From Thermoanaerobaculaceae bacterium (GTDB lineage: Bacteria > Acidobacteriota > UBA4820), in contig JAAZNT010000333.1 in NCBI GenBank assembly GCA_012798145.1, positions 1-24,926 on the forward strand: a stretch of DNA of 24,926 nt, given 5' to 3'. Positions within the stretch are counted from its first letter, which is position 1. Every line of letters starts with the position of its first letter. Made by a program: the position numbers and the translations under genes. Shown in pieces: positions 16,120 to 24,910 of the stretch. A model generated the notes under the pieces. That model made no database searches. It worked only from the letters and a program-made list of their open reading frames with translations, and was not told where the DNA came from.

Positions 16120-18352
16120 CTTTTTCTTCTCCTTTCTTGACTTTCTTTCTTTCTTCCTGTAGCCTATCATCGTAGTGGAATTCAGGCTTCATTAGCCTAA
16201 TGTTCCATTCAGGCTTAAGGAAAGTGAAGGTGGGAACAGCATTCCGAACGGTTTTTTTTACCAATGACTGCTTGTTCTTTACCACCTTCACTTTTCCATT
16301 GTAACAGTTCCAAAAACAAAATTTCCATAAGAAAGTTAATATACGATGACTGCTTTTAGTGGCAACTCTTCTCATTTCTCCATCCACCAAATATTTTACC
16401 ACTTTTTTGGAAGCAAAGCCACTTATGGGATTGATGATTTTGTCTTTATCAATTTGATAATTGTGGCTTGTTGAATTTTCTGAAGGCGAGTTTAATGTAT
16501 CGCTATATGCATTTCCCTCTTCATCTCTGTAAACAACGCCTTCAACCCAATCGCCTTTGAGCAATTCAGAATCAATTGACCTTATTCCCCAGTAGATTTG
16601 GGTCTGCCCTTCAGATATCGGGATTTCCACCCTGTTTGTCGTTTTTCTGTTGCCGTCTTTTGCTGTCGTGTAGGGAGGACCTATTTCTCCTATGTAAATG
16701 TCAGGTTCTTCATAGTTTGTCCCTGCATAAACTTCATAAGTCAGAGATGATTGAGGTGTTAAGTCGTCTCTGCCGTAGTTCCATTCAAGGATTATTTTCT
16801 CTCCTTCATCATATACAGAAACAACTGAAGGAGGCTCGGGTGGACTATTCAAAATAAGGCTCTCCTCAGCAGAATTCACTATCGCCTCTCCTGTGTAAAT
16901 ATCCATCGTCTTCACACCAACCGCTGCAAAGTCAAGTATCTTGTCCCCGTCAAAATCTCCCGCCGCAACAGCGGTGATTTTTCCATCAAGAATAAGTCCT
17001 GTCCTTAGAAGACCTCCATTGCCGTTGTTCTTCAGATAACAACTTTTATTCGCTTCTTCTGTCACACACAAAAGCCCAGGAAGCCCGCTTCCGTCAAGAT
17101 CGCAAAATACCACCTGTCTTACATTTGGAAGGGAAATTCCGCTTTCCATATAACCCGCCTCCCAGGTGTGAGCAAGAGGCCTTATTGAAATGTCAGATGT
17201 TGTGTCGGGCTTGAAAAGATATACCAAAGGATCGTTTTTTCCCTGCCTTCCAACCTCTATGTCCAAAAATCCATCCCCGTTGGCATCTTTTGCATCCACC
17301 GACGAAATCGCGCTTCCCGTCAAAATTTTTTCTTCTTCCCAAAGATGCAAATCTTCCTCTGTAGCGTAGAAGAAACTCAAACCATTTTTCCCGGCGCAAA
17401 GAATGTCCATAAGCCCATCATTGTTCATATCTGCCAACTGCAAATCATTAATGTCAAGTGAGGTGTAAATAACCTCGTCAAGGGTAAACCCGCAAGAAGG
17501 CTCATATTTTAAAATAGATATTTTGGTTTTTGAGCCTAAAACTATTCTCACCTTTCCATCAAGGTTTAAAGGAATGTAGCCGACCGCAAAGGCTGAAATG
17601 TCTTCATCAAGGTCAAAAGAGTAACCCAATTCAAAATGATCCCCATAATTCATTTCCGCCTGCAAACGCCTTTTGGAAGCGATTATTCTGTCAAGGTAGC
17701 GATCACCATTTAAATCAAATAATCTTATTTTGTCCCCATCACCTGCGGTTGTGCTCAATTCGGAGGAAGCGTTGACAAATGTCCCATCAGGGCTTGCCTT
17801 AAACAAAGCGTTTTGCACGACAAGGTCGTATGCGGCGTCTCCGTCTAAGTCTCCAACTTTTATGTCGGGTTGGGATAAATCTATTTTAATTGGTAAAGGA
17901 ATTATCTTCGGCTTTGGCAGAGTGGATCGTGGGGCAGGCGTAATCTCGCTTTCCTCATCATTTATCAAAGCGGAAACCCCATAAGTCAACGAACTATCAC
18001 TCAAGCATCCATTTGCGTCAAATTTGTATTCCGTTCCTCCGTTAGCCTTAATTTCACCTATCAATTTCGGATTTGACCTTGATTCACTTAAAATGTAAAT
18101 TCTAAAGGAGGTGTAAGCACAGGCACTTTGATCGTCAACGGTGAAGTAGATAGTGTCATTTGGCGAAGAATTGATGTCGTAGGAAAGACAGACAGTTGAA
18201 GCCCACAGCGGTTTTAATGGGATTTCAGGCGTTGCTCTTGCAACAACCTCTTCGCTCCAAGGGCTTAATATTCCCGTTTCTTCATCATAGGCTCTCACCA
18301 TTATTGTGTAATCCTCGCAAGCCGAAGGAAGCGTCAGGACATATCCATACAC
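16112..18352 (-). CDS. C-terminal part of the giant surface protein (FN3, FG-GAP/VCBS repeats, FN3); last 77 aa are read-through into the IS110 left end
   Basis: In frame with the upstream ORF after one TAG. It begins with the second half of an FN3 domain (YTIMVRAYDEETGILSPWSEEV) and has FG-GAP motifs (GDLDGDAAYDLVV, DLNGDRYLDRI, ADMNNDGLMDIL, DANGDGFLDI, GDFDGDKILDFA). Confidence 0.7.
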   Translation of the reverse strand: MYGYVLTLPSACEDYTIMVRAYDEETGILSPWSEEVVARATPEIPLKPLWASTVCLSYDINSSPNDTIYFTVDDQSACAYTSFRIYILSESRSNPKLIGEIKANGGTEYKFDANGCLSDSSLTYGVSALINDEESEITPAPRSTLPKPKIIPLPIKIDLSQPDIKVGDLDGDAAYDLVVQNALFKASPDGTFVNASSELSTTAGDGDKIRLFDLNGDRYLDRIIASKRRLQAEMNYGDHFELGYSFDLDEDISAFAVGYIPLNLDGKVRIVLGSKTKISILKYEPSCGFTLDEVIYTSLDINDLQLADMNNDGLMDILCAGKNGLSFFYATEEDLHLWEEEKILTGSAISSVDAKDANGDGFLDIEVGRQGKNDPLVYLFKPDTTSDISIRPLAHTWEAGYMESGISLPNVRQVVFCDLDGSGLPGLLCVTEEANKSCYLKNNGNGGLLRTGLILDGKITAVAAGDFDGDKILDFAAVGVKTMDIYTGEAIVNSAEESLILNSPPEPPSVVSVYDEGEKIILEWNYGRDDLTPQSSLTYEVYAGTNYEEPDIYIGEIGPPYTTAKDGNRKTTNRVEIPISEGQTQIYWGIRSIDSELLKGDWVEGVVYRDEEGNAYSDTLNSPSENSTSHNYQIDKDKIINPISGFASKKVVKYLVDGEMRRVATKSSHRILTFLWKFCFWNCYNGKVKVVKNKQSLVKKTVRNAVPTFTFLKPEWNIRLMKPEFHYDDRLQEERKKVKKGEEKDE
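16160..16331 (-). ncRNA. Predicted bridge RNA (target-binding loop plus donor-binding loop) of the IS110 element
   Basis: Two stem/internal-loop/stem modules whose four loop strands match the left and right target flanks and the left and right donor ends. The 5' and 3' ends are estimates. Confidence 0.8.

Positions 18353-24910: not shown

Follow-up and report, generated by a model that had tools for sequence, protein, structure and literature searches.

A probably truncated Rhs toxin gene with a long insert at the shell-core junction in an acidobacterial genome

Polymorphic toxins built on an Rhs/YD shell include a Sec ('T2SS', type II secretion system)-dependent group with orphan C-terminal cassettes, which has been catalogued, and lectin-type domains embedded among RHS repeats were already mentioned in that work (Zhang, Iyer, Aravind et al. 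2012, PMC3482391). The bacterial teneurin-like proteins (TLP), which also occur in Acidobacteriota, have YD shells that are exported by Sec and enclose variable toxins, together with an Rhs cleavage motif and a variable set of adhesion domains, among them CarboxypepD, PKD and FN3; their adhesion domains, FN-plug and NHL propeller are located N-terminal to the shell (bioRxiv 10.1101/2025.11.11.687626). Here we analyze a giant Rhs gene on a 24,926-nt stretch of DNA (hereafter the window), which is the entire contig JAAZNT010000333.1 (C144 in our numbering) of a metagenome-assembled genome (MAG) of a Thermoanaerobaculaceae bacterium (GCA_012798145.1; 2.1 Mb, 443 contigs, 88.6% complete). Most probably this is a 3'-truncated gene for a Sec-exported Rhs polymorphic toxin, interrupted by a nonsense codon in this MAG, from an Acidobacteriota clade whose members carry arms between shell and core. 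We place it, as a truncated copy, in a variant of a known Rhs system that has been little described.

The locus resembles the described Sec-dependent Rhs toxins (PMC3482391; WapA-type proteins; cages 7Q97, 8H8A, 8QJA and 8UY4) in the signal-peptide-like start and YD shell of the window protein and in the core, tips and orphan arrays of its relatives. It differs in that up to ~1,350 residues are folded between the last shell strand and the core, compared with 0-35 in the solved cages and in most Acidobacteriota relatives, and in that the window copy has neither core nor tip. The order of domains also differs from that of TLP: the window N-terminus enters the shell directly, with shell homology starting ~30 residues after the signal peptide, and the adhesion domains come after the shell and before the core. 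No NHL or other propeller was found upstream of the window shell in the Pfam scan. In TcB-TcC, a beta-propeller makes an excursion outside the YD cocoon wall. The window propeller, in contrast, is part of a long arm of several domains, and its place is the shell-core junction and not the TcA-docking end; neither SpvB nor TcdB_toxin_mid was detected in the Pfam scan, and a TcA partner was not searched for. In the literature on Rhs proteins we found no description of large inserts at the shell-core junction.

The gene is located on the minus strand, where one frame is open from the contig end at 24925 down to 16112 with a single in-frame TAG. This codon separates two open reading frames (ORFs) of the same frame, ORF1 (18356-24859; 2,168 aa from the ATG at 24859) and ORF2 (16115-18352; 746 aa). 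An earlier note, made from the letters alone, had read a signal peptide, a ~1,460-aa YD shell, CnaB-like repeats, a PPC domain, a Cys-containing domain, FN3-like domains and FG-GAP repeats, and this architecture was borne out by Pfam and AlphaFold2, the signal peptide being read from the translation only. In the scan with hidden Markov models (HMMs) that the note had proposed, the shell matched RHS_repeat (7.6e-26) and YD_repeat_2x (TIGR01643; 2.3e-11), CarboxypepD_reg matched five stretches of ORF1 (2.5e-42), and PPC and FG-GAP were also detected; the three FN3-like domains gave no match in Pfam. The Rhs core model TIGR03696 had no match at E<=1 in ORF1 or ORF2, nor anywhere in the window, and neither a toxin tip nor an immunity gene was found there, in agreement with what the note had reported missing.

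Relatives were found by searching with the C-terminal part of the window shell. Six proteins (P0005, P0007, P0045, P0008, P0031 and P0066) could be aligned with the window at the shell-core junction, and all share the motif K-x-[YFS]-L-Y-[VA]-G-x-x-x-x-[TA]; past this motif the aligned sequences are unrelated, as different inserts start. In the window, the final shell strand, KAYLYVGSNVAAT (aa 1450-1462, nt 20474-20512), is conserved and is directly followed by non-Rhs domains, as in the insert-bearing Acidobacteriota clade. The window shell is 31-47% identical over ~1,450 aa to the shells of P0005, P0007, P0045, P0066 and P0031, and signal peptides begin P0045, P0066 and P0007 at the position aligned to the window N-terminus. 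All five of these complete relatives have a TIGR03696 core 730-1,010 aa past the shell end and then a toxin tip, and six further proteins (L102, L103, L105-L107 and L110) show the same junction with core and toxin tip after the insert. The note had proposed either a non-toxin class of YD-shell adhesins or an insertion of ~1,370 aa into the core followed by loss of the distal core and toxin at a REP cluster. The former fails the note's own test, since homologues with the same shell and junction carry core and toxin after the insert. Of the latter, insertion and loss are both supported, but the insert sits after the last shell strand and ahead of the core, not inside it.

The cores of the relatives form one subfamily (...YEPYG...TGQERD...MHFR.YAS.MGRF.KPDN...NPQSWNLYSYV.GNPVN..DP.GH), which among GTDB species genomes is nearly restricted to Acidobacteriota, including Aminicenantes-type MAGs. 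The distance from shell to core was measured with a shell-end HMM, which matches L102-L111, together with a core HMM; a BLAST-based measurement on 100 distant Rhs matches was unusable, as shifts in repeat register produced meaningless gaps. The gap is 0-35 aa in most Acidobacteriota Rhs proteins of this core type, and in genomes of the window's order we observed gaps of 45, 255-290, at least 659, 894 and 1,233 aa, always without interruption of the open frame. The inserts contain CarboxypepD_reg, PKD, Ig_7, PPC, MAM-like, choice-of-anchor-J-like or unassigned domains, and several finish in a low-complexity stretch of 80-100 aa directly before the core. Because such varied inserts occur at one conserved junction, the alignments indicate that the junction is an insertion hot spot whose inserts are exchangeable.

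Beyond the core, the toxin tips of the relatives have ~200-260 aa, those of the five complete relatives of the first search being 200-240 aa long. That of P0066 is Ntox24; those of P0007 and L022 gave weak Lnb_N and sub-threshold Peptidase_C97 matches, that of P0045 a sub-threshold Peptidase_M66 match, and the tips of P0005, P0031 and the C324 cassette of the window's own genome (see below) belong to no Pfam family. Two orphan core-tip cassettes lie after L102 (2,811 aa), and L011, L013 and L020 have arrays of a similar kind.

To place the inserts relative to the cage, L107, a short-insert relative from the same order, was folded over residues 700-1899 (shell, 259-aa insert and core; 45-sequence alignment), yielding an AlphaFold2 model with a pLDDT (predicted local distance difference test) of 82.6 and a pTM (predicted template modeling score) of 0.79. 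VIA-align matched this model at Z 21-28 to Rhs cages (8QJA, 8QJD, 8UY4, 8H8A and 7Q97), TcB-TcC (4O9X and 6H6G, Z 22-25), teneurins and the TLP structure 9IFO, the last being the top match (Z 27.7). The alignments cover both shell and core, up to the core's end, and leave out the insert, residues ~865-1078 being unaligned; the first insert domain matches FN3 (Z ~8). The model thus supports a chain that leaves the wall, forms external domains and returns to build the plug. The 1,345-residue arm of the window would likewise project outside the shell, by virtue of the shared junction; the modelled case is that of L107 only.

With about 1,345 folded residues, the arm of the window is the largest insert seen. 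Its domains follow in the order CnaB x4, PPC, CnaB, Flg_new_2-like, FN3 x2, FG-GAP propeller and FN3. The small Cys-containing domain is likely a divergent InlB B-repeat (Flg_new_2), because the aligned domain of P0123 scores 8.7e-11. Structure prediction, which the note had also suggested, was run on the last 829 residues (32-sequence alignment) and gave an all-beta model (pLDDT 75.5) with two FN3-like domains, the propeller, a third FN3-like domain and a disordered tail. The best PDB matches of this model were ectodomains with FN3 domains and a propeller (ROS1/Sevenless), FN3 arrays and propellers, and 6H6F was among the structural matches to the propeller module.

When ORF2 was used as query in an exhaustive phmmer search, P0122-P0125 were recovered, with 42-46% identity (46% for the FN3-propeller module against P0122 and P0123). 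P0123 is a complete gene of 1,460 aa within contigs of 18-32 kb. It encodes a secreted papain-like protease with a signal peptide, Peptidase_C1, CnaB-like, PPC, CnaB-like, Flg_new_2, FN3, FN3, FG-GAP propeller and FN3 domains, and its stop comes 7 residues after the last FN3; a gene of this type is present in a genome of the same bacterial family. In BLASTP, residues 174-1292 of the arm aligned with residues 326-1453 of P0123 as a single colinear block (37% identity over 1,167 aa). The two proteins therefore share the same ordered module of ~1,130 aa, but in the protease it forms the C-terminal end of the enzyme and is followed by the stop, whereas in the window it is internal to the Rhs protein and is followed by a tether remnant. 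Because of this colinearity, most of the arm appears to have been acquired as one block, exchanged with the C-terminal module of a secreted enzyme, and such an exchange explains the 'adhesin-like stalk' of the earlier note.

Two further loci are related to this module. At the P0123 locus (L087-L089), the Peptidase_C1 gene adjoins a glycyl-radical enzyme with its activase and a leucine-rich repeat protein. In the window's own genome, contig C1 (3-1250) carries a fragment with CnaB-PPC-CnaB domains that shares 60% identity with 250 aa of the window arm; its last domain before the stop is choice-of-anchor-J-like and resembles the last pre-core domain of P0005, P0045 and L103. We consider this fragment to be another case of arm modules common to non-Rhs proteins.

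The break point lies shortly past the last FN3-like domain. In the window there is no return from the insert to a core in the open frame; only a tether remnant of ~40 aa is left, and the final Rhs-like residues are ...DKDKIINPISGFASKKVVKYLVDGEMR (16447-16370). The segment 16369-16447 corresponds to the 5' end of a core-toxin cassette on another contig of the genome, C324 (~80 nt, about 88% identity by our own count, with a 3-nt indel); tblastn gave 76% identity over 34 aa for the linker remnant, and blastn a 31-nt exact match. Rhs homology ends at a 24-nt fragment resembling the ...GAGGTTTCCGCTAAAAAATGCAGTCAC part of a REP (repetitive extragenic palindromic)-like repeat present on at least 10 contigs, and also the flank of an IS110 element on C165. 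In other sequencing runs, the 24-nt side of the joint adjoins other REP sequence. On its far side the fragment borders an IS110-family insertion sequence with a transposase gene at 15124-16170, and the Rhs frame runs 85 junk codons into this element to a stop at 16112-16114. Position 16346, at which the earlier note had ended its element, is the exact IS110 boundary. The opposite flank (15050-15108) is the other part of the same REP-like repeat, which also surrounds the second IS110 end, on C165. Past IS110, no remnant of a core, tip or immunity gene was detected; REP copies, tRNA-Leu and a convergent peptidase gene are all that is present.

Because the frame never returns to a core and enters REP and IS110 sequence, we call the window copy truncated. 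The linker, core, toxin and immunity gene were presumably lost by deletion or rearrangement at the REP element; a short GAG microhomology at the joint would, on our reading, fit an illegitimate join, and IS110 may have inserted before or after the loss.

The repeat itself is a REP/MITE (miniature inverted-repeat transposable element)-like sequence of >130 nt, represented in the window by 14860-15108 and 16346-16369 and found on at least 10 contigs at 95-100% identity (C310, C290, C216, C149, C111, C78, C61, C226, C177, C98 and C165). The two IS110 ends, in the window and on C165, occupy the same ...CTAAAA..GTCAT site in it. In four metagenome runs, IS110 depth was about 2-3x the depth of the gene and the chromosome. 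The coordinates of all features are given in Table 1.

Table 1. Features of the Rhs gene and its 3' surroundings in the window; starts of the CnaB-like domains were placed by repeat motifs
Feature	Coordinates	Strand	Basis or remark
Signal-peptide-like N-terminus KKLNRLLLIITTIGLFTMFTFGQ	24842..24910	-	Translation; homologues' signal peptides at aligned position
YD/Rhs shell, aa ~7-1462 (~1,460 aa)	20474..24841	-	RHS_repeat, YD_repeat_2x, homology to relatives
Four CarboxypepD_reg/CnaB-like beta-sandwich domains, aa 1467-1824	19388..20461	-	Pfam CarboxypepD_reg, SdrD_B, CarbopepD_reg_2
PPC (pre-peptidase C-terminal) domain	19079..19387	-	Pfam 7.7e-11, aa 1843-1910; colinear with P0123
Fifth CarboxypepD_reg/SpaA-like domain	18821..19075	-	Pfam SpaA and EMC7_beta-sandw, aa 1939-2004
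Small Cys-containing beta domain	18551..18820	-	Flg_new_2 E 0.011, below threshold
FN3-like domain 1, cut by in-frame TAG	18221..18550	-	AlphaFold2 strands 107-207 of model
FN3-like domain 2	17948..18220	-	AlphaFold2 model; Foldseek matches to FN3 arrays
FG-GAP beta-propeller	16871..17947	-	FG-GAP_3 5.1e-21 (4 stretches), FG-GAP; pLDDT mostly 80-97; propeller-fold matches
FN3-like domain 3, last folded domain	16490..16870	-	AlphaFold2 model residues ~663-789
Pre-core linker remnant	16370..16489	-	pLDDT 31-40, predicted disordered; homology to C324
24-nt REP-like fragment at joint	16346..16369	-	Rhs homology ends here
IS110-family insertion sequence	15109..16345	-	Transposase_20, DEDD_Tnp_IS110; boundaries from intact repeat copies and C165
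tRNA-Leu	14489-14573		Downstream of Rhs gene

Although the window lacks a core, the genome does not. TIGR03696 gave 11 matches genome-wide, all on contigs other than that of the window, and C324, C386 (two), C416 and C171 carry orphan cassettes with the core subfamily of the clade and different tips. On C324, an unrelated stretch with a stop is followed by ...DKEKISINPISGFASRKVVKYLVDGEMR; the matching stretch, including ...INPISGFASRKVVKYLVDGEMR, mirrors the last Rhs-like residues of the window. Next in the cassette come a low-complexity linker of ~95 aa, VVYFYTWDHLGT...NDPSGH and a tip that at its start is similar to the P0005 tip. Judged by its match to the window, the C324 cassette is a candidate for what should follow the window break.

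The tips of C324 (L004:782-1420) and P0005 (2465-2698) share the N-terminal motif SFGMSW[FY]DQF.S.W.PW..QT.ENSWY.G, which may mark an uncatalogued toxin domain. A second, unrelated Rhs family occurs on contig C251 of the same genome (L007 and L008), with an extra segment of ~90 aa at the corresponding position, between ...YIFIPNSYEPIARV and YFYHSDHLGT; there are three tandem copies or cassettes with this segment, and an internal TAA interrupts one.

The in-frame TAG (18353-18355) falls within FN3-like domain 1, and the BLASTP alignment to P0123 crosses it without a gap. Logan contigs from four runs of four studies (soil, hot spring and two sludge samples) contain the gene at ~99% identity, and in all four, position 18354 is G instead of T, giving TCG (Ser). 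The TAG is thus seen in this MAG alone, and either arose recently as a nonsense mutation or reflects an error in the consensus. Recoding or read-through of TAG was considered and rejected: the codon is an ordinary stop in this genome (it ends 146 of 798 long frames genome-wide and four neighboring genes), and the related strains read TCG. As with the TAG, the truncated state may be confined to this strain, in which case an intact gene could exist in its relatives. Neither the shell nor the arm was found in two genomes of the same genus at the thresholds used, so the gene is accessory.

Other indels in the four runs preserve the frame (+1/-1 within 4 nt, and 156 nt swapped for 147 nt). The latter is a replacement in the shell, where at 22004-22161 the related strains carry 147 other letters, and a second divergent region, with 12 substitutions clustered within 90 nt, occurs at the FN3/propeller boundary (17818-17905). 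Both suggest recombination tracts and not point mutation.

At the 5' end, no ATG, GTG or TTG precedes 24859 in the frame, and the contig ends in a poly-C run of 14 bases, so that the true start codon of the Rhs gene is missing or masked at the contig end. The run (24913-24926; C on the minus strand, G on the plus strand) occupies the place where the start codon of the giant gene is expected and could be an artefact of sequencing or assembly. In related strains, the unitigs extend 267 nt past the contig end.

Several observations weigh against a true truncation. Logan unitigs of the four runs do not cross the joint (16349-16405), stopping at 16406 and 16348, and of three junction words sampled, only one occurs in other runs. 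Such unitig breaks are expected, however, because of the 31-nt repeat and the multi-copy insertion sequence. These data, together with the fragmentation of the MAG into 443 contigs and the 31-nt exact repeat shared with C324 at the joint, would also fit an assembly or population artefact, in which the gene is intact in most cells and continues from 16370 into a C324-like linker, core and toxin, C144 being misjoined or a minority allele; the strains in those runs also lack the TAG. We consider this unlikely. The two ~80-nt copies differ enough to be separated by an assembler with k>31, C324 has its own unrelated upstream sequence including a stop, and a graph chimera would need Rhs k-mers on the REP side, where none are present. 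It should also be noted that, compared with a related strain, a partial list of changes comprises 12 synonymous and 19 non-synonymous ones, which indicates neither strong constraint nor free decay.

P0123, P0122 and P0124 end right after the last FN3, which leaves some room for a natural core-less protein, an adhesin or empty cage in which a P0123-like terminal module replaced the Rhs 3' end; the lack of core, toxin and immunity gene in the window would agree with it. In addition, no relative was found in which an FG-GAP propeller arm is followed by a core: a word-index search for large proteins with the FG-GAP part of the arm returned the window protein only, with no other protein of >1,600 aa containing this propeller module, so the intact form of the window gene is one that we infer and do not see. 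Even so, a core-less fusion seems decidedly unlikely. Past the last FN3, the window frame stays open for ~55 residues and enters sequence related by homology to a core-toxin cassette's pre-linker, there is no clean stop before the 85 junk codons in IS110, and all complete relatives of the window shell have a core and tip. Another possibility is a split system, in which the window gene provides a shell subunit and C324-like cassettes provide plug and toxin in trans. Core-toxin cassettes are numerous in this genome, and a two-chain cocoon is workable, TcB/TcC being the precedent. However, the C324 frame has neither a signal peptide nor a convincing start (its only ATG lies in the shared segment with a cramped Shine-Dalgarno-like site), and the relatives are single-chain proteins whose cassettes resemble classical displaced orphans keeping variable lengths of pre-core sequence. 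A split system is therefore the least probable of these alternatives, and a very improbable one. A 3'-truncated toxin gene remains our preferred explanation.

Several steps of the likely mechanism are seen in relatives: Sec export, a cage that encloses the tip, a motif for autoproteolysis, and orphan tips available for exchange. In intact members, the shell would be made first, and the chain would then exit to build an external arm of 45 to ~1,230 aa, often pass through a low-complexity tether of 80-100 aa, and come back to build the core plug, which carries the PxxxxDPxG autoprotease motif, and finally the variable tip of ~200-260 aa, with orphan core-toxin cassettes after the main gene. The tether would let the chain return to the plug while the arm stays outside the cage, and the arm may bind a ligand on the target cell or anchor the cage to the envelope of the producer. 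In the window copy, all beyond the first ~40 tether residues would have been replaced by the REP-like fragment carrying IS110. Because no plug, toxin or immunity gene remains, its product, if made, would not be a loaded toxin capsule but at best an open, empty cage with an arm, and we regard the gene as a pseudogene in the making. More generally, it is conceivable, though doubtful at present, that the arms of Sec-exported Acidobacteriota Rhs toxins are swappable blocks of 45 to >1,300 aa from the C-terminal modules of other secreted proteins, docked between cage wall and plug, and that the arm, tethered to the plug, decides which cell or surface the loaded cage binds, in the way that CdiA uses its receptor-binding region or a phage its tail fibre, but as part of an Rhs cage.

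The window copy itself, a decaying or at least plug-less allele, matters less than the clade to which it belongs, and it carries a warning that an 'Rhs shell without core' in a fragmented MAG may reflect truncation rather than a new class. The arm-bearing clade offers a concrete handle on how Sec-exported Rhs toxins without a type VI secretion system find and enter their targets, and it shows domains being exchanged block-wise between secreted enzymes and toxin cages.

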